From: an uncultured Candidatus Saccharibacteria bacterium | GTDB taxonomy: Bacteria > Patescibacteriota > Minisyncoccia > Phycocordibacterales > CAIRYW01 | Reading direction: 5' to 3' | Length of the DNA stretch: 64,000 bases | Assembly (NCBI GenBank): GCA_964386665.1 | Contig: CAYLQP010000002.1 | Span: forward strand, 105 to 64,104 | Part shown: positions 1,016 through 49,389 of the stretch, one piece after another | How positions within the stretch are numbered: position 1 is the stretch's first letter | Layout: every line of letters starts with the position of its first letter | Translations under genes and position numbers: made by a program | The notes under the pieces: generated by a model | Told to the model about the DNA's origin: nothing | Seen by the model: only the letters and a program-made list of their open reading frames with translations | Databases searched by the model: none

Positions 1016-3058
<2,043 letters not shown>

Positions 3059-16714: not shown

Positions 16715-16786
16715 AAAAAAGTTAAATTATGTAATAGACATCTAATTAGTGGTATTTCTATAAAAACACACTTTTTGTACGTAGTG

Positions 16787-16860
16787 TGTCGAGGGTGGGA
16801 CTTGAACCCACGACCTGTCGATTATGAATCGACCGCTCTCACCAGCTGAGCTACCCCGAC
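16787..16860 (-). tRNA. tRNA-Met(CAU) (elongator or possibly a tRNA-Ile2 lysidine substrate)
   Basis: I folded it by hand into a canonical cloverleaf. The acceptor is GUCGGGG/CCUCGAC, with U8A9. The D-stem is GCUC/GAGC with a GG loop. The anticodon stem is GUCGA/UCGAC with loop UUCAUAA. The T-arm is GUGGG-UUCAAGU-CCCAC. The discriminator is A. Confidence 0.85.
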
Positions 16861-16943
16861 AATACATAGCAATATAATACAAAAAACCCAAAAAAACAAA
16901 CTTTTAGAGGTGTTTTCTATAATTATAAGAATTTTTTAACTTG

Positions 16944-17014
16944 TTGCGGAGTCCGGATTTGCACCGGAGTCTTCAGGTTATGAGCCTGACGAGATACTAC
17001 TTCTCTACTCCGCT
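16944..17014 (-). tRNA. Second CAU tRNA (Met-like), atypical D and T loops
   Basis: The anticodon arm UCAGG-CUCAUAA-CCUGA and the T-stem UCCGG/CCGGA closely resemble E. coli tRNA-fMet. The 1:72 pair is an A-A mismatch. The D-loop AGUAGUA lacks G18 and the T-loop reads UGCAAAU (G55). There is no GGG/CCC anticodon stem, so it is not a canonical initiator. Confidence 0.55.
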
Positions 17015-17096: not shown

Positions 17097-17801
17097 TCAG
17101 ACGAAATAAAACTCTTCAAACACTTTTTTATACAACGCAAAAACTCTTTCAGCCTCTGATCGTGAAAGATGAAAGTCAGTACCTGAGTGAGCAATTCTAT
17201 TTCGAACCTTGTGTGCTTCCCATGCTTCATTTAATGTATGAAAATCACTTGGTTCTACTATTTTTAATTTGTCAGCAATACTTTCGCCTGGGTATCCCAT
17301 TTTTTTTAACATTTCATCAAGAAGAATATCGCATTCAATAATCGCAAGTCGCCAGTCCGCTTCATTGTGCGATTTGATGCGAAGGGTAATGTTTTCCCAA
17401 CGTTTTTTTGACTGATTTGCAGATCCTTGTGTCGTATGTCCACTCTCCTGTACTCCATGATGATCAGATGAATGGTGGTGTCCTCCACTTCCATGAGAAG
17501 TGTGATTATCGTGATGACCTCCGTGTCCGTGATGAGAAAGTTGTCCAAGTTTAAAATTGGCATACAGCGTACCAAGTAAAAACAAGAGACACAAAAAAAT
17601 CGATGCAACTTGTATCACATCAAATATTGCAACAAACACAGAAGAGAAACTTGGCAATTCGTTTAACCTAATCCCTACCAAATTTAACAGATATTTCACC
17701 ACAAGCCATAACGCACCTAAAAACAAAATCCAAAAAAGAACATCGCTAAATCCACCCCCTCCACCCCCTTCTTCAGCTCCTCCTTTTTTTTCTTCTGCCA
17801 T
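17097..17801 (-). CDS. Membrane-anchored protein with His-rich linker and C-terminal HEPN-like (R-x4-H) domain
   Basis: Gly-rich N-terminus and two TM helices. Then a His-rich tract (HHGHGGHHDNHTSHGSGGHHHSSDHH). Then an alpha-helical domain of about 100 aa containing KVRNRIAHSG, which matches the HEPN Rx4-6H motif. Confidence 0.55.
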   Translation of the reverse strand: MAEEKKGGAEEGGGGGGFSDVLFWILFLGALWLVVKYLLNLVGIRLNELPSFSSVFVAIFDVIQVASIFLCLLFLLGTLYANFKLGQLSHHGHGGHHDNHTSHGSGGHHHSSDHHGVQESGHTTQGSANQSKKRWENITLRIKSHNEADWRLAIIECDILLDEMLKKMGYPGESIADKLKIVEPSDFHTLNEAWEAHKVRNRIAHSGTDFHLSRSEAERVFALYKKVFEEFYFV

Positions 17802-17809
17802 AGATAAAA

Positions 17810-19216
17810 TTAGCTTAATTTTTCAAATGAATCTGCGAAATCAAGTAGTGTATAATCTAAATAAAACTCACTTAAGAACTGCATACTCAGTGGTAATCCT
17901 GTTTTAGTTTGACCACTTGGCACTGCAATAGCAGGAATCTGTGCAAGGTCTGCTGGAGACGTAAACACATCTTCAAGGTACATTGCAATAGGATCATTAG
18001 TCTTTTCTCCAATCTTAAATGCTGGATTTGCAGTTGAAGGCATTGCAATAATATCAACTTGAGTAAAGGCATTTTTAAAATCTTGTTTTATGAGTTCACG
18101 AATTTTTGTAGCTTTGCCATAATACGAATCATAATATCCAGAAGAAAGCACATACGTACCAATCAGAATTCGTCTCTGCACTTCTTTGCCAATAAGTGAT
18201 CCTCTTGTTTTGAAATAGTCAGCAGTTAAATTGTCTCCCTCTACTTTTTGACCAAACTTAACACCATCATATCGAGCCATATTTGAAGACACTTCAGCGG
18301 GCACAATAATGTAATACACTGGAATCGAATAGTGAATATGAGGTAGTGTTACATCAACAATCTCAAAACCGTTTTGTTTTAATTTTTCGATTGATTCATT
18401 AAAGTTATGAATTACCTCTTCATCAATTCCTCCTTTAGAAAGAAGCTCTCGACACACACCTATTTTTTTAACTGTTTTAGATTCTTTTGGTATTTCAATA
18501 GTCGTTGCATCATACGTATCAACACCCGCAATATATTTAAATACAATTTTTGCATCTTCTGCAGTCTTTGCAAAAGGTCCCATATGATCGAGAGAAGAAG
18601 CCATCGCCATTACTCCATGTCTTGAAACAGCACCATACGTTCCTTTGTACCCCACAACTCCACAAAAACTTGCAGGCTGTCTAATGGATCCACCTGTATC
18701 ACTTCCAATAGCAAATAAACAAAGCCCCGCTCCAAGAGCCGCTGCACATCCACCACTTGAACCTCCTGCGACTCGCTCAAGGTCAAACGGATTTTTAACT
18801 ACTCCATAAGCAGATGTTTCAGTTGAGGCACCCATCGCAAACTCATCCATATTTGCCCGTCCAAGAAGTACTGCTCCAGCTTCAATTAATTTTTTTGCCA
18901 CAGTACTATCATACGGCGCAATGTATCCTTCAAGCACTTTTGACGCAGAGGAAGCTCTACGTCCTTTAAACAAAAAGTTATCTTTCACCACATAAGGAAT
19001 ACCAAGGAGTTCTCCTTTTTCTCCATTCTTTATTCGTTCATCAGCCTTTTGTGCTTGTGCAAGTGCATCATCAAACACTTCGAGAAGTGCGTTAAGTTTT
19101 GGATTTTCTTCTTCTATCTTTTTTAAGAAATACGTCGTCAAATCAACTGATGTTATTTCACCATTTCGAAGTAACTCGCCCGCTTTTTTTATTGTAAGAT
19201 CTTTAAAATCAATCAT
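17810..19216 (-). CDS. gatA: Glutamyl-tRNA(Gln) amidotransferase subunit A
   Basis: It carries the amidase signature (GGSSGGCAAALGAG, catalytic Ser-cisSer-Lys context). It follows gatC by 4 nt. Confidence 0.93.
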   Translation of the reverse strand: MIDFKDLTIKKAGELLRNGEITSVDLTTYFLKKIEEENPKLNALLEVFDDALAQAQKADERIKNGEKGELLGIPYVVKDNFLFKGRRASSASKVLEGYIAPYDSTVAKKLIEAGAVLLGRANMDEFAMGASTETSAYGVVKNPFDLERVAGGSSGGCAAALGAGLCLFAIGSDTGGSIRQPASFCGVVGYKGTYGAVSRHGVMAMASSLDHMGPFAKTAEDAKIVFKYIAGVDTYDATTIEIPKESKTVKKIGVCRELLSKGGIDEEVIHNFNESIEKLKQNGFEIVDVTLPHIHYSIPVYYIIVPAEVSSNMARYDGVKFGQKVEGDNLTADYFKTRGSLIGKEVQRRILIGTYVLSSGYYDSYYGKATKIRELIKQDFKNAFTQVDIIAMPSTANPAFKIGEKTNDPIAMYLEDVFTSPADLAQIPAIAVPSGQTKTGLPLSMQFLSEFYLDYTLLDFADSFEKLS

Positions 19217-19220
19217 AGTG

Positions 19221-19499
19221 TTACATTATCTTCTTTACCTTCACAAACCCATTTTCAGAGGCTGGAGCACTCGACAAAAGCGACGAAGTATATTCTCCTG
19301 TTTGGTTCACCACTGTGTCTTGTCGGAAAACATTATTTGGGGAAAGCTTTCTATCTGCCTCTTGTGTAAGCGCACTGTCGATTTGACCAACATATTCAAT
19401 GATTGTACCTAGCTCTTTTGCCAAACCATCCAAAGATTCTGGAGAAACTTCAAGTCGAGCAAGTGTAGCCAATTTTTTAACTTCTTCTTTTGTAATCAT
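19221..19499 (-). CDS. gatC: Asp/Glu-tRNA amidotransferase subunit C
   Basis: 92 aa. MITKEEVKKLATLARLEVSPESL is the typical GatC N-terminus. Confidence 0.85.
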   Translation of the reverse strand: MITKEEVKKLATLARLEVSPESLDGLAKELGTIIEYVGQIDSALTQEADRKLSPNNVFRQDTVVNQTGEYTSSLLSSAPASENGFVKVKKIM

Positions 19500-19593: not shown

Positions 19594-19827
19594 TTATAGA
19601 CCTAGTATTTGTGTGAGATGTTCTTTATCAAATCCAACAATTATCTCTCCTTCGATATCAATAACAGGAACCCCCATTTGCTCACTCTTGTCGATCATTT
19701 CTTTACGGGCATTGAGATCAGTTGCTACATCGTGTTCTGTATATTCTACGTTATGTTGTTTAAAAAATTCTTTTGCCATATTGCAGTATGTACAAACTGG
19801 AGTTGAGTATATAGTTACTTTTTTCAT
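19594..19827 (-). CDS. Glutaredoxin/NrdH-like redoxin
   Basis: 77 aa with a CTYC active site inside a thioredoxin fold (VTIYSTPVCTYCNMAKEF). Confidence 0.8.
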   Translation of the reverse strand: MKKVTIYSTPVCTYCNMAKEFFKQHNVEYTEHDVATDLNARKEMIDKSEQMGVPVIDIEGEIIVGFDKEHLTQILGL

Positions 19828-19912: not shown

Positions 19913-20302
19913 CTAATGTCCGATACCAAACCAACTCCCAACTGATCTAAACATCCGTTTAAAAAACGATTCTGTTTCTACTTCTTCTACCTTTTCTTCA
20001 TCAGGCAACACAACGATTAATTGTTCTTGTGGTTTTGCAACATTAAACTTTTTTCGAAATTCACTTTCTAAACCATCTTCACTTTCGAGGTTTTTTATAT
20101 CTGATTCAAGAACATGCTCTCTTTCTTTTAGCTCAAGCAACTTTACTTCGAGCACTTCTTTTTCTACGATACTTAAACGGTATTTGAGATAAATATTAAC
20201 CACTGCTTTGATCAAAATAAGGCAAAGCACGAACATTCCAATAAGGACTGGTTTAGAGTACATTTTTCTTCTGATATTTTTTCGTTCTTGAAATTGGCGC
20301 AT
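19913..20302 (-). CDS. Septum formation initiator family protein (FtsB/DivIC-like)
   Basis: One TM helix followed by a coiled coil (LEVKLLELKEREHVLESDIKNLESE). The true start may be the internal Met of MYSKPVLIG. Confidence 0.6.
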   Translation of the reverse strand: MRQFQERKNIRRKMYSKPVLIGMFVLCLILIKAVVNIYLKYRLSIVEKEVLEVKLLELKEREHVLESDIKNLESEDGLESEFRKKFNVAKPQEQLIVVLPDEEKVEEVETESFFKRMFRSVGSWFGIGH

Positions 20303-35802: not shown

Positions 35803-37791
35803 ATGACAGAACAACACAAAAAAGAAACTGGCGTTGAAGCAACTCCAGTAACAGGAGCACCGCAAAGAACAGTACGAAAACCGTTCCATGCAACAAGTAG
35901 TATCCTTAAACAAAAACCAGGGCAACACAAAACTCCTTCTCACACAGCTTCGCACTCACATAGCTCTTTTTCTTCGACTAAACATCCTCACCGATCTCAC
36001 TCACACAACAAACAACCTATGCGTCCACATGTTGTAGCCCCACACAAAGACACAAACAAACATACAACGATACAAAAACCGGTCTCAAAAAGTGCATCTA
36101 TCCCTCAACCTGCACCTGGAATCGTACGAATCATTCCACTTGGAGGTGTTGAAGAGGTAGGAAAAAATATGACTGCAATTGAAATCGGTAATGATATTAT
36201 CGTGATTGATGCAGGATTTGCTTTTGAAGATGATACAACTCCTGGAATCGACTATATCCTTCCGAACACAAAATACCTCGAGGAACGAAAAGATCGTGTT
36301 CGAGCAATCTTTATTACTCACGGACACCTCGACCACACAGGAGGAATTCCTTATATTATGGACCGAATCGGTAATCCTCCTCTGTATACTCGAAACCTTA
36401 CCGCTCTTATGATTAAGAAGCGTCAAACAGAATTTCCAAACGCACTTCCAATCGATTTTAAAATAGTTGAAAAAGACGAAGAGCTTACTGTTGGAAATAT
36501 CAGAGTGAAATTCTTTGGAGTAACTCACTCAATCCCTGATTGTATGGGAATAATGGTACGTACACCTTACGGAAACATCATCAACCCAGGAGACTACAAA
36601 CTTGACCACGAAGATGGTATTCCTGAAGCATATGAAGAAGCGATTTACAGTAAAGTGGCATCAGAGAAGACGCTTCTCCTTATGACTGACTCAACGAACA
36701 TTGAAAACCCAGGATTTTCTACTCCAGAAAAACTAGTCCACCAAAACCTTGCGGATATTATTCGTAACACAAAAGGACGTCTCATCCTCGCAATGTTTGC
36801 CTCGCACATCTCGCGAATCGTAAAAGTAATTGAAGCTGCCGAAGCGTGCAACAAACGTATTGTTGTTGAAGGGCGAAGTATGAAAAACAATATTGAAATC
36901 TGTAGAGAAGGACGTCTTATTGAAATCAAAAAAGATACCATCATTCCTGCTTCTGAAATCGATCAATATCCACCTGACCGAATCGTCATCCTCGCAACAG
37001 GAGGACAAGGAGAAGAGTTTTCAGCTCTTTCACGAATGGCTGCAAAGAACTTCAAATACATTCAACTTAACCCTCGAGACACAGTGGTACTTTCATCTTC
37101 TATTATCCCAGGAAACGAGCGAGCGGTTCAAAAACTCAAAGACAATCTTGCTCGAAACGGTATCAAGATCATCCACTACCGAACTTCTGATGTCTTTATT
37201 CACTCAACAGGACACGGAAACCGAGGTGAGATTGAATGGTTGCACCGAAAGCTCAAGCCTAAATTCTTTATCCCGATCCACGGAAACCATTATATGCTTC
37301 GACTCCACGCCGAGCTTGCAAAAGAAGTAGGGATGCCTGCCGAAAATATTGTTGTCCCTGACAACGGAATGATCATAGAAATCCAAGACAATGGTGAAAA
37401 GATTGTTGCACTCAAAGAAAAAGCACCTTCAGGACAAATGATGGTGGATGGATTTGCCATTGGTGATATGCAAGAAGTAGTAATCCGTGATCGACAATTA
37501 CTTGCTCAGGACGGAATGTTTGTGATCATCGCAACAGTGAACACAACAAATGGTAAGCTCAAAAAATCTCCTGATATTATTTCTCGAGGATTTGTATACT
37601 TGCGTGAAAACCAAGAACTTCTTCGACAAGCTCGTATTATCATCAAGAAGACCATAGAAGATAACACTGTAGGAATGCATCCAATCAACTTTGATCTTCT
37701 CAAAAATATCTTAACTGACAATATGAGTCGTTTCCTTTTCCAAAAAACAAACAAACGACCAATCGTGATCCCGGTTCTACTTGGAGTGTAA
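35803..37791 (+). CDS. rnj: Ribonuclease J
   Basis: Beta-lactamase/beta-CASP core (IIPLGGVEEVGKNMT...ITHGHLDHTGGIPY). The N-terminus has a low-complexity His/Ser-rich extension of about 100 aa. Confidence 0.9.
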   Translation: MTEQHKKETGVEATPVTGAPQRTVRKPFHATSSILKQKPGQHKTPSHTASHSHSSFSSTKHPHRSHSHNKQPMRPHVVAPHKDTNKHTTIQKPVSKSASIPQPAPGIVRIIPLGGVEEVGKNMTAIEIGNDIIVIDAGFAFEDDTTPGIDYILPNTKYLEERKDRVRAIFITHGHLDHTGGIPYIMDRIGNPPLYTRNLTALMIKKRQTEFPNALPIDFKIVEKDEELTVGNIRVKFFGVTHSIPDCMGIMVRTPYGNIINPGDYKLDHEDGIPEAYEEAIYSKVASEKTLLLMTDSTNIENPGFSTPEKLVHQNLADIIRNTKGRLILAMFASHISRIVKVIEAAEACNKRIVVEGRSMKNNIEICREGRLIEIKKDTIIPASEIDQYPPDRIVILATGGQGEEFSALSRMAAKNFKYIQLNPRDTVVLSSSIIPGNERAVQKLKDNLARNGIKIIHYRTSDVFIHSTGHGNRGEIEWLHRKLKPKFFIPIHGNHYMLRLHAELAKEVGMPAENIVVPDNGMIIEIQDNGEKIVALKEKAPSGQMMVDGFAIGDMQEVVIRDRQLLAQDGMFVIIATVNTTNGKLKKSPDIISRGFVYLRENQELLRQARIIIKKTIEDNTVGMHPINFDLLKNILTDNMSRFLFQKTNKRPIVIPVLLGV

Positions 37792-47831: not shown

Positions 47832-47903
47832 GGCCCTATCGTCTAACGGTTAGGACGAAGCGTTCTCAATGCTTAAATCAGAGTTCGATTCTCTGTAGGG
47901 TCA
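47832..47903 (+). tRNA. tRNA-Glu(CUC)
   Basis: Hand-folded. The acceptor is GGCCCUA/UAGGGUC (one G-U). The D-arm is GUC-UAACGGUUAG-GAC. The anticodon arm is AAGCG-UUCUCAA-UGCUU. The T-arm is CAGAG-UUCGAUU-CUCUG. The discriminator is A. Confidence 0.8.
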
Positions 47904-47934
47904 CAATAGAGAGAGCTAGTTCGAGCACTCGAGA
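47901..47934 (+). repeat. 34-bp direct repeat, copy 1 (begins in the last 3 nt of tRNA-Glu)
   Basis: TCACAATAGAGAGAGCTAGTTCGAGCACTCGAGA, identical to 48854-48887. Confidence 0.9.
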
Positions 47935-47952
47935 GGGGTCGAAAGACTCTTG

Positions 47953-48760: not shown

Positions 48761-48853
48761 TATCTACTCGAGAGAGGTCGTTCTTATTATTTTAACGATA
48801 GCTAAATAAGTTTTACCTCGTAATGAAATCATTGGGTTCTATCTCGAGAAAGT

Positions 48854-48887
48854 TCACAATAGAGAGAGCTAGTTCGAGCACTCGAGA
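48854..48887 (+). repeat. 34-bp direct repeat, copy 2
   Basis: Identical to 47901-47934. It ends 8 nt before the ATG of island gene B. Confidence 0.9.
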
Positions 48888-48894
48888 AGGATAT

Positions 48895-49389
48895 ATGTAT
48901 ACAGAACTTTTAGGAAAATTAATCTCAAATCTATGGTCTCTTGAGACTGTTATTAGGTATTTTATTTCTATAAGATTAAATGAATCAACACCCGATATTT
49001 ATGAAATAGAAATTGGTGATGAGGTTGAGGATAGTTATTTTACTAATTTTAAAAGTCTAGATCAATTAATTGAAAAGTATAATTCTCTGTGCTCTCATGA
49101 TTTTCAAAAGATTGATAAGGAAAGAGTTTTAGATATAAGGGATTTACTTGCTCATGGAAGAATACACGTAACTGATAAAATAGATGCAAATAACTGGTAT
49201 TTAGTTAAGTTTAGTGATCCTAAAAAAGATAGTGGAAAAAAAATAATGCTAACCCACAAGGTAAAACCCAATAATGATTCAGGTGCGTGGATAAAAGAAA
49301 GTATAAAATTTATTTCTGAACAACTACACAGGGTTGGAAAAAGTGGTAACTTTGAAATTATTCAGAACAAAAAGACTACTCGAGAATAG
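48895..49389 (+). CDS. Hypothetical protein with R-x4-H (HEPN-like) motif (island gene B)
   Basis: 164 aa from MYTELLGKL. It contains VLDIRDLLAHGRIHV. The track ORF start at 48823 lies upstream of and runs through the repeat. Confidence 0.5.
   Translation: MYTELLGKLISNLWSLETVIRYFISIRLNESTPDIYEIEIGDEVEDSYFTNFKSLDQLIEKYNSLCSHDFQKIDKERVLDIRDLLAHGRIHVTDKIDANNWYLVKFSDPKKDSGKKIMLTHKVKPNNDSGAWIKESIKFISEQLHRVGKSGNFEIIQNKKTTRE

Follow-up and report, generated by a model that had tools for sequence, protein, structure and literature searches.

Within a 64,000-nucleotide stretch of contig CAYLQP010000002.1 from an uncultured Candidatus Saccharibacteria bacterium (Patescibacteriota), hereafter the window, a minus-strand gene at 17097..17801 (stop codon 17097-17099, minus strand) encodes a 234-residue protein with an ATG start, referred to here as protein X. 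Our preferred reading, to which we assign a probability of about 0.55, is that protein X is a HEPN endoribonuclease tethered to the membrane, facing the cytoplasm and serving a housekeeping or signal-coupled function. The gene was taken from the list of open reading frames (ORFs), and its product was modelled by AlphaFold2 (AF2) with a mean predicted local distance difference test score (pLDDT) of 81. A search of 5.8 billion proteins returned 859 homologues, and a profile of the C-terminal domain matched 2902 cluster representatives (50% identity) at E<=1e-3, with 1832 at E<=1e-10, indicating that protein X is not a chance ORF. The HEPN identity of this domain is supported but not proven, by sequence comparison and by predicted structure. 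An earlier sequence-only reading of this DNA had proposed a membrane-tethered HEPN nuclease. The layout of the fold, the position of the motif, the invariance of its arginine, asparagine and histidine and the recurrent similarities to HEPN families all favour that proposal, whereas every one of the matches is below threshold and the nuclease activity stands as a prediction.

HEPN domains are defined by a four-helix up-down core with an insert between helices 2 and 3 (PMC3710099), by an Rx4-6H motif at the end of helix 3 in which the arginine is followed by a polar residue, mostly N, D or H (PMC3710099), and by a conserved acidic residue in helix 2 near the motif (PMC3710099). These criteria were applied to protein X, with the superfamily taken as Pfam clan CL0291. 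The C-terminal HEPN-like four-helix domain (residues 127-234; 17100..17423, minus strand), predicted to be cytoplasmic, was delimited using an AF2 domain model, sub-threshold HEPN-clan matches and Foldseek. Modelled alone, the domain reached a pLDDT of 95.5 and a predicted template modelling score of 0.88, and its core helices (2-16, 21-41, 64-83 and 88-104 in domain numbering) form, in the predicted model, the four-helix up-down core of two alpha-hairpins. Residues 42-63 make a loop with a short helix (49-54) between core helices 2 and 3, which in the same model corresponds to the HEPN insert. The motif R74-N75-x3-H79 (domain numbering) is located at the C-terminal end of the third core helix, and thus an Rx4H motif with a polar asparagine stands at the end of helix 3. 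In the sequence of the whole protein this is R200-N201-R-I-A-H205 (17187..17204, minus strand), the predicted catalytic Rx4H; in the full-length AF2 model RNRIAH closes helix 190-209, after which come G207 and a loop. The acidic candidates in helix 2 are D158 and E156, part of the E156-C157-D158 stretch (17328..17336, minus strand) that was placed in core helix 2 by a 94-sequence alignment and the AF2 helix assignment. In that alignment D158 is invariant and E156 at least 90% conserved, making D158 a candidate for the HEPN 'second acidic residue'.

The motif belongs to the most strongly conserved part of the family. All invariant residues in the 94-sequence alignment fall within the C-terminal domain (W150, D158, L161, G172, A193, W194, H197 and K198, followed by R200, N201, H205, G207, V227, F228, E230 and F231), and the motif itself sits inside the invariant block A193 W194 .. 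H197 K198. R200 N201 ... H205. G207. D158, W194, H197, K198, R200, N201, H205 and G207 were invariant in both family alignments (A1, the 94 sequences, and A2), and the mean column identity over the domain was 67% in A2. The sequence-only reading had named loss of the R and H residues among homologues as grounds for its own rejection; this did not occur, since R, N and H were present in 261/261 relatives. RNxxxH was found within the last 60 residues of all 261 retrieved relatives, and the extended block HK.RN..[AST]H.G in 246 of them. In 245 of the 246 relatives bearing the extended motif the domain lies at the extreme C-terminus, and 234 of these 246 have at least one transmembrane (TM)-like segment upstream of it. 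Proteins matched by the domain profile range from 128 to 696 aa. Named homologues among the 859 are all Patescibacteria (Paceibacterota, Taylorbacteria, Nomurabacteria and others), and a precomputed Pfam domain is present on 0/859.

Protein X itself gave nothing meaningful in Pfam, NCBIfam, PHROGs or PADLOC scans, and had no Pfam match at E<=10. Among the 94 family members, sub-threshold matches recurred to Swt1-like HEPN (33/94, best E 1.4e-3, covering 86-96 aa of the 115-position model), RiboL-PSP-HEPN (17/94, best E 8.8e-4) and Cthe_2314-HEPN (4/94), with single members matching DUF4145 (E 0.08) and pEK499_p136 (E 0.26). The family consensus matched Swt1-HEPN with E 0.0026 over 96/108 residues (18.5 bits, gathering score 27.5), and its sole NCBIfam match was Cas13e, a HEPN RNase (E 0.0045). 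The best scores from relatives and consensus stayed below the gathering thresholds of both PF18731 (18.5 against 27.5 bits) and PF13643 (13.4 against 23.1 bits), and protein X therefore falls outside these Pfam families as defined.

A Foldseek search with the full-length model was swamped by BRIL/GPCR four-helix bundles, and for this reason the domain was remodelled alone and the search repeated. The best superposition against the Protein Data Bank (PDB) was then with the HEPN protein AF0298 (2hsb; probability 0.94, TMq 0.69, root mean square deviation 3.1 Å, E 0.9), and the list also included the HEPN chains 1wwp, 1wty and 2q00 and the MtlR structure 6kcr; cytochrome b562 bundles fitted the domain worse (TM 0.45-0.5, root mean square deviation 6-7 Å). 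Viral structures in BFVD yielded nothing interpretable, the top match being an unnamed entry (probability 0.98, E 0.49). PDB sequence searches with the protein and with the domain profile produced spurious matches only (GDH, MukF, MobB).

These results bear on the alternative that protein X ends in a four-helix bundle peculiar to its lineage and without kinship to HEPN, in which the R-x4-H string arose by convergence and the protein serves some other membrane biology. Such a domain would be expected to behave as observed in several respects: every HEPN similarity is sub-threshold, Foldseek returned many generic four-helix bundles at comparable E-values, and the profile search of the PDB found only the spurious GDH and MukF entries. 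It would not, however, account readily for four independent HEPN criteria occurring together (the insert, the motif position, the asparagine after the arginine and the acidic residue in helix 2), nor for recurrent matches that belong mostly to the HEPN clan, come from several libraries and span nearly the full domain and not the motif alone. The best structural superposition, moreover, is with a bona fide HEPN protein. We consider the alternative quite unlikely.

Upstream of the domain, the protein begins with a Lys/Glu/Gly-rich N-terminal tail (residues 1-17, MAEEKKGG...GGGGGG; 17751..17801, minus strand), predicted from K+R counts to be cytoplasmic. TM helix 1 spans residues 18-41 (17679..17750, minus strand; Kyte-Doolittle centres 25-37, AF2 helix 18-41) and TM helix 2 residues 52-82 (17556..17648, minus strand; centres 59-77, AF2 helix 52-90), where peaks were called with a 19-residue window at >1.6; the two are joined by a short outer loop, residues 42-51 (17649..17678, minus strand), with a family mean of 0.2 K+R. 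A juxtamembrane linker follows at residues 86-126 (17424..17546, minus strand), containing 13 His and including a core His/Gly/Ser tract at residues 90-115 (17457-17534, minus strand). The two TM helices described in the sequence-only reading were thus recovered by hydropathy and by AF2, and its succession of a His-rich linker and a helical C-terminal domain agrees with the composition and with the step in pLDDT from 43-56 in the linker, which is disordered, to >93 over residues 127-230 of the full-length model. The domain does not end at AHKVRNRIAHSGTDFH as had been stated, since another conserved helix (214-230, ...VFEEFYFV) comes after it. The only tandem repeat in the gene is a 9-nucleotide unit, TCCACCCCC, present in 2.1 copies at 17751-17769 and encoding the N-terminal glycine run (GGGGGG).

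Across the 94 homologues the mean K+R count is 3.2 in the N-terminal tail, 0.2 in the loop between the TM helices and 2.2 in the 15 residues past TM2, and among 234 relatives the stretch after the last TM segment averages 2.8. Because of this distribution, the positive-inside rule places both termini and the HEPN-like domain in the cytoplasm, and we infer that protein X is a bitopic-hairpin inner-membrane protein. Longer relatives (290-610 aa) follow the same plan with an SH3-like domain of 100-350 aa inserted between the TM helices, in the order Lys-rich N-terminal tail, TM, SH3-like domain, TM, K/R-rich stretch and C-terminal domain. SH3_3 was identified in one of them (P0203) with 42.7 bits against a cut-off of 27, and weaker SH3/Tudor-like matches were seen in others; no SH3 domain was found in protein X itself by the Pfam scan. 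The family plan is a variable outside part, TM segments, a linker and an invariant cytoplasmic domain, of which protein X, whose outer loop has about 10 residues, is a minimal form. The segment between the TM helices is likely to be the input side.

The linker is distinguished by its histidine content, with 13 His in the 41 residues 86-126 (32%) compared with 1.9% His across the long ORFs of the window. Among the 94 homologues a His-rich linker is found in about 57 nearest relatives (4-18 His) and in one distant outlier (P0067, 17 His), and in the rest of the family the linker has 0-2 His. Within the group of about 57, His-richness is preserved as composition down to about 42% identity, although the sequence cannot be aligned. 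A slippage-prone DNA repeat as the origin of the tract was ruled out, there being no tandem repeat beneath it. The RcnA Ni/Co efflux model NF007454 matched protein X with E 0.0098 and 15.1 bits against a cut-off of 195, over residues 67-147, a range that runs from the end of TM2 through the His tract into the C-terminal domain; the NCBIfam scan showed no family-level likeness to RcnA outside the low-complexity His stretch. Comparable His-rich metal-binding segments are known from the RcnA loop, the tails of HypB, UreE and SlyD and the cytosolic loops of CDF and ZIP proteins. Protein X resembles them in having a disordered juxtamembrane stretch rich in His, Gly, Ser and Asp, but the likeness stops at composition, there is no homology, and the tract is missing from most relatives.

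Could protein X be chiefly a metal-handling protein, such as a sensor, chaperone, store or transporter accessory, whose poly-His tract and C-terminal His, Asp and Glu residues bind Ni, Zn, Co or Cu at the membrane? The density of His relative to background, its retention as composition among the roughly 57 homologues and the faint RcnA loop match are what such a protein might show. Yet the His-poor relatives retain the domain, the operon place and the motif, the RcnA score is a small fraction of its cut-off and falls on low-complexity sequence, the conserved neighbourhood at annotated loci has no metal-transport or metallochaperone genes, and the conserved block resembles a HEPN active site and no known metal site. 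This makes a primarily metal-handling function highly improbable. Since the tract is restricted to a subclade, with 0-2 His in other members, it lies outside the conserved mechanism of the family, and the suggestion in the sequence-only reading that the nuclease is metal-regulated found no support. The composition leaves room for a smaller role, in which the His-rich linker would be an accessory tether of the subclade that may bind divalent metal or sense pH.

The principal new finding lies in the genomic position of the gene. It follows gatA (17810..19216, minus strand; Pfam Amidase 1.4e-138), which encodes the amidase subunit of Glu/Asp-tRNA amidotransferase, with a gap of 8 nucleotides between the gatA stop and the X start, and gatA is in turn preceded by gatC (19221..19499, minus strand; Pfam GatC 9.3e-11), the first gene of a putative gatC-gatA-X operon. 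A promoter-like site (TCCACA-17-TACAAT with TG, 19535-19507, minus strand; a consensus match only) is located upstream of gatC, and, again by consensus match only, the stretch from gatC through X in the window showed no terminator-like site. Protein X is probably co-transcribed and translationally coupled with gatA.

The same arrangement recurs throughout the lineage. In a collection with one genome per species (185,579 species), at least 589 genomes encode a relative of protein X, and the best 80 of these are all labelled as Patescibacteria/Parcubacteria lineages or generically. The usual order, from the best 80 loci and three contigs reached by protein look-ups, is ligA-gatC-gatA-X on one strand. 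gatA lies directly upstream of X on the same strand at 78 of the 78 loci with upstream sequence, with a median gap of 20 nucleotides (<100 nucleotides in 70/78, several overlapping), and the linkage is common to short and long architectures. In the group of P0094 (L005/L006 5765-5998) a 77-aa ORF with no Pfam match stands between gatA and the X homologue. In the window, ligA (1016-3043, minus strand) is about 16 kb from gatC, unlike the relatives in which it is directly upstream, and gatC is preceded by genes for a glutaredoxin (19594-19827) and a DivIC-like protein (19913-20302); the displacement of ligA is a local rearrangement that spared the gatC-gatA-X-tRNA block.

Horizontal acquisition of the gene was considered and is unsupported, its GC content being equal to that of its neighbours. 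No relatives were found by tblastn in 50,697 phage or 72,556 plasmid records, nor in 2.9 M IMG/VR contigs, and PADLOC gave no match. No nucleotidyltransferase gene was found in the window or at annotated related loci, and no other partner gene was seen beside X, which is preceded there by gatA and followed by tRNA genes or a methyltransferase gene. The adjacent minimal nucleotidyltransferase (MNT) antitoxin of HEPN-MNT systems is thus absent from these loci, as are the defence-model match, patchy distribution and defence-island or mobile context of abortive infection (Abi) and other anti-phage effectors. The fixed gatC-gatA position, the native GC content, the lack of PADLOC, phage, plasmid or viral relatives and the lack of a partner gene together are what one expects of a core gene inherited vertically in Paceibacteria (Parcubacteria), and not of a toxin-antitoxin or Abi module.

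This profile has to be set against the possibility that protein X is a HEPN abortive-infection or stress toxin, like Abi2/AbiD/AbiF, PrrC/RloC or HepT, that became fixed in the lineage, with the hairpin sensing envelope damage or phage entry and the RNase shutting down translation. Among bacterial HEPN families that retain an intact Rx4-6H, the majority are toxins or effectors of defence (PMC3710099), and the families closest in Pfam (Swt1/Abi2-like, RiboL-PSP, Cthe_2314, pEK499_p136) belong to conflict systems. A membrane sensor joined to an effector is a layout typical of Abi proteins, and the variable ectodomain, SH3 or none, recalls sensor diversification. A gene in at least 589 species genomes that follows gatA at 78/78 loci, with 67% mean column identity over its domain, does not fit well with a class of genes that are normally patchy and fast-evolving, as protein X is neither; nor does the absence of an antitoxin, nucleotidyltransferase or other nearby partner and of a PADLOC match, or its native GC content and its absence from the phage, plasmid and viral-contig collections. 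As a lineage-wide core gene in the gatC-gatA operon it therefore disfavours the analogy with toxin and Abi systems drawn in the sequence-only reading, and we regard a fixed toxin as decidedly unlikely. Because the gene is vertically inherited in this operon, a housekeeping or signal-coupled role is preferred over that of a mobile toxin or defence gene.

Downstream of X the window contains two tRNA genes with a CAU anticodon, both identified by ARAGORN on the minus strand (16943-17014 and 16786-16860), so that the adjacency noted in the sequence-only reading holds. The first begins 82 nucleotides past the X stop, is 72 nucleotides long and is initiator-like (A1xA72 mismatch, A11, G30G31:C39C40), with two and not three G-C pairs in the GG:CC element and with C74 as the one encoded residue of the CCA end. 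The second is of elongator Met or Ile2 type, with a paired G1:C72 and, by eye, no G-C run in the anticodon stem. At related loci a tRNA(CAU) was found within 1.5 kb downstream of X in 49/56 cases and was the first feature within 300 nucleotides in 43/56. The equivalent tRNAs carry an AxA or CxA mismatch at 1x72 in 50/63, A11 in 47/63 and GG:CC in 53/63, and the first is often followed by a second tRNA(CAU), tRNA-Asp and two tRNA-Thr genes. The conserved block is gatC-gatA-X-tRNAi-tRNA(CAU)-tRNA-Asp-tRNA-Thr x2. At many related loci, however, the first, initiator-like tRNA is on the opposite strand to X, which weakens co-transcription as the cause of the adjacency.

Neither the 64-kb window nor the surroundings of gatCA at 86 related loci (to about 6 kb) yielded a gatB gene, by motif search or by tblastn with a B. 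subtilis GatB sequence; this negative is a weak one because the query was unverified. As gatB is not adjacent at any locus examined, the usual third slot of a gatCAB operon is occupied by X. Protein X as a disguised GatB or GatB tail was considered and rejected, as no similarity to GatB or to its tail domain was seen.

The gatCA and tRNA context would suit a protein whose HEPN-like domain is a non-catalytic binding or scaffold module, tethering GatCA, a tRNA or another partner, or binding nucleotides as do the HEPN-like domains fused to nucleotidyltransferases. Universal linkage to gatC-gatA with probable translational coupling, the place of X in the third operon slot with gatB elsewhere, and the conserved tRNA genes just downstream are all in line with this, and several HEPN families are known to bind substrate or regulate rather than catalyse (PMC3710099). 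Families that have lost catalysis usually lose Rx4-6H (PMC3710099), whereas here R, N and H are retained in 261/261 relatives together with the helix-2 acidic residue; protein X has no similarity to GatB or the GatB tail domain, and gene adjacency is no evidence of physical interaction. A purely non-catalytic role therefore appears rather unlikely.

The window also encodes an island protein (48823-49389) containing IRDLLAHG, to which the sequence-only reading had compared protein X in motif spacing and context. The likeness amounts to the R-x4-H string alone (hhalign probability 0.3%, E 0.19), and the comparison was dropped; the island protein had no Pfam or PADLOC match. A 37-nucleotide direct repeat, 97% identical, occurs at 47901-47937 and 48854-48890 with a spacing of 953 nucleotides. 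Its first copy starts at the 3' end of a tRNA-Glu(CTC) gene (47832-47904) and its second is in the 5' end of the ORF at 48823-49389, and an ORF between the copies has weak similarity to Abi_alpha and to PADLOC PDC-S47 (both E 8e-4). The repeat could be an att-like duplication of a small insert at a tRNA gene, or a repeated leader.

The membrane-tethered HEPN endoribonuclease that we favour may work as follows. Protein X would be expressed from the gatC-gatA-X operon, and its flexible linker would keep the HEPN-superfamily domain attached to the membrane on the inner side. By HEPN enzymology (PMC3710099) the domain is predicted to be a metal-independent endoribonuclease, in which H205 would act as general base or acid and R200 and N201 would hold the scissile phosphate, aided by D158. 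Cleavage would proceed by 2'-O-transesterification, leaving 2',3'-cyclic-phosphate and 5'-OH ends, and activity would require two domains to pair into a composite site, as in other HEPN enzymes. The predicted topology would direct it to RNA at the inner membrane face. Membrane-associated HEPN proteins have been proposed to cleave RNA at this face upon surface stimuli (PMC3710099), and with a variable outer segment the activity of protein X may likewise respond to a signal perceived outside the membrane or within it (PMC3710099), the His-rich tether being a possible extra input in its subclade. Protein X would then be an Ire1-like device, with the sensor outside or in the membrane and the RNase inside; alternatively, it may be a functional analogue of the membrane-tethered RNases that initiate decay. 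By association, through the gatCA linkage and the tRNA cluster, tRNA-related RNA is an attractive candidate substrate. A more far-reaching version would make protein X an essential housekeeping RNase found throughout the Paceibacteria and acting together with GatCA. It might work at the membrane on tRNA or on mischarged Glu-tRNAGln or Asp-tRNAAsn, process transcripts of the adjacent initiator-tRNA cluster, or else couple an external (host-contact or cell-wall) signal via the hairpin or SH3 ectodomain to translation capacity; we hold this version to be rather doubtful.

Several observations weigh against the favoured reading. No domain match reaches a curated or significance threshold (the best Pfam score being 18.5 bits against a gathering score of 27.5), the PDB profile search with the domain returned no HEPN chain, and all Foldseek E-values are at least 0.19. 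Because four-helix bundles are common and R-x4-H is short, convergence of the motif is possible. The positive-inside rule is the single support for the topology. Common descent within one class could explain part of the tight synteny, in place of functional coupling, and a fixed chromosomal position does not by itself argue away a suicide or stress function. The window also carries an RNase J gene (35803-37791, plus strand; beta-CASP 1.7e-42). With at least one canonical nuclease of RNA decay thus encoded in the genome, protein X need not have a dedicated role in initiating decay. The scan that identified RNase J also found genes for a family-5 solute-binding protein, an MFS transporter, MurJ, a histidine kinase and BipA in the window.

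Among known proteins, the closest comparison is with Swt1/Abi2-like (PF18731) and DUF4145 (PF13643) domains, which share with protein X a four-helix core of about 105 aa, the insert between helices 2 and 3, the acidic residue in helix 2 and R-N-x3-H at the end of helix 3 followed by G, and which give weak alignments of nearly full length. Protein X differs from them in its own invariant block (AW.AHK.RN..AH.G) and C-terminal VF.EF tail, and in residing in a housekeeping operon and not in a restriction-modification, Abi or toxin-antitoxin context. PrrC, RloC and HepT also share the Rx4-6H site, and the substrates of PrrC and RloC are tRNAs or mRNAs (PMC3710099); protein X is likewise flanked by tRNA-related genes, with gatCA upstream and a tRNA cluster downstream. 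Those proteins serve as toxins or in defence, are partnered by ATPases or MNT proteins and occur patchily, whereas protein X is partnerless and universally syntenic.

TM-linked bacterial HEPN proteins were described in 2013, including WP-TM+DUF4145, a helical domain+TM+Abi2/Swt1, HEPN+2TM+Zn-ribbon and, in Firmicutes, 'TM and SH3' fusions of DUF4145 (PMC3710099). Compared by description only, protein X shares with these groups a cytoplasmic HEPN domain on one or more TM segments, a possible external sensor and the same cleavage logic, and, again by description only, the long relatives with their order TM, SH3-like, TM, HEPN resemble the TM+SH3+DUF4145 arrangement of Firmicutes (Table 1 of PMC3710099). 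Protein X is set apart by its two-TM hairpin with a loop of about 10 residues, by a HEPN domain that is C-terminal and not N-terminal, by the lack of a WP signature, N-terminal globular domain or Zn ribbon, and by its origin in a Patescibacteria lineage unknown in 2013 with a conserved core-operon context. It has two TM helices and, in the 94-sequence alignment, no conserved WP in the TM consensus, in contrast to the single WP-signature helix of the membrane DUF4145 group. The architecture, described as unusual in the sequence-only reading, was overstated in this respect, as at least three groups of TM-linked bacterial HEPN proteins and the TM+SH3+DUF4145 arrangement were on record (PMC3710099).

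More distant parallels concern logic and not descent. Ire1 and RNase L, with their KEN domain, and C6orf70 may by analogy share with protein X a membrane anchor, a cytoplasmic HEPN-type RNase, a dimerisation-dependent output and a cellular, not selfish, function; protein X has no kinase domain, the KEN domain is circularly permuted, and no sequence relationship is detectable. RNase Y and RNase E are core endoribonucleases held at the inner membrane face by an N-terminal TM segment or an amphipathic helix. The resemblance to protein X would be that of a membrane-held endoribonuclease encoded by a core gene, and their fold and chemistry (HD/KH; S1/DNase I-like; metal-dependent) are unrelated to it; there is no evidence for a role of protein X in starting bulk mRNA decay.

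Established knowledge already covers the HEPN domain, its Rx4-6H active site and bacterial HEPN proteins linked to TM segments, TM+SH3+DUF4145 among them, and because such proteins have been described a membrane-tethered HEPN protein is not new in kind. Literature searches on HEPN domains in Patescibacteria, on a gatCAB-associated membrane protein and on membrane-anchored HEPN RNases after 2013 found nothing specific. The searchable literature gave no account of the family of protein X, which has no curated model, of its restriction to Patescibacteria and near-universality there, of its strict gatC-gatA place or of its His-rich subclade.

To our knowledge, HEPN nucleases of bacteria have been encountered almost exclusively as toxins, as Abi effectors and as RNases accessory to CRISPR systems. 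In protein X a HEPN-like domain with an intact motif is encoded by a core gene that an entire class of ultra-small Patescibacteria conserves at one locus, tied to the gatC-gatA operon, and its product is held at the membrane. The proposal offers a testable function for at least 2900 sequence clusters now labelled 'hypothetical protein'. These organisms are largely uncultured, so that tests would have to be heterologous or in vitro. If protein X were instead a fixed suicide or stress module, Abi-like logic could enter a minimal core genome. If it is active, a housekeeping or signal-coupled step of RNA cleavage would be indicated in organisms whose RNA metabolism has hardly been studied, and the recruitment of HEPN domains in eukaryotes, as in Ire1 and Las1, would have a bacterial counterpart. 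Were the GatCA-linked or signal-coupled reading true, a bacterial HEPN nuclease would have been drawn into core translation or RNA metabolism, and an ultra-small episymbiont would possess an Ire1-like, outside-in RNA switch.

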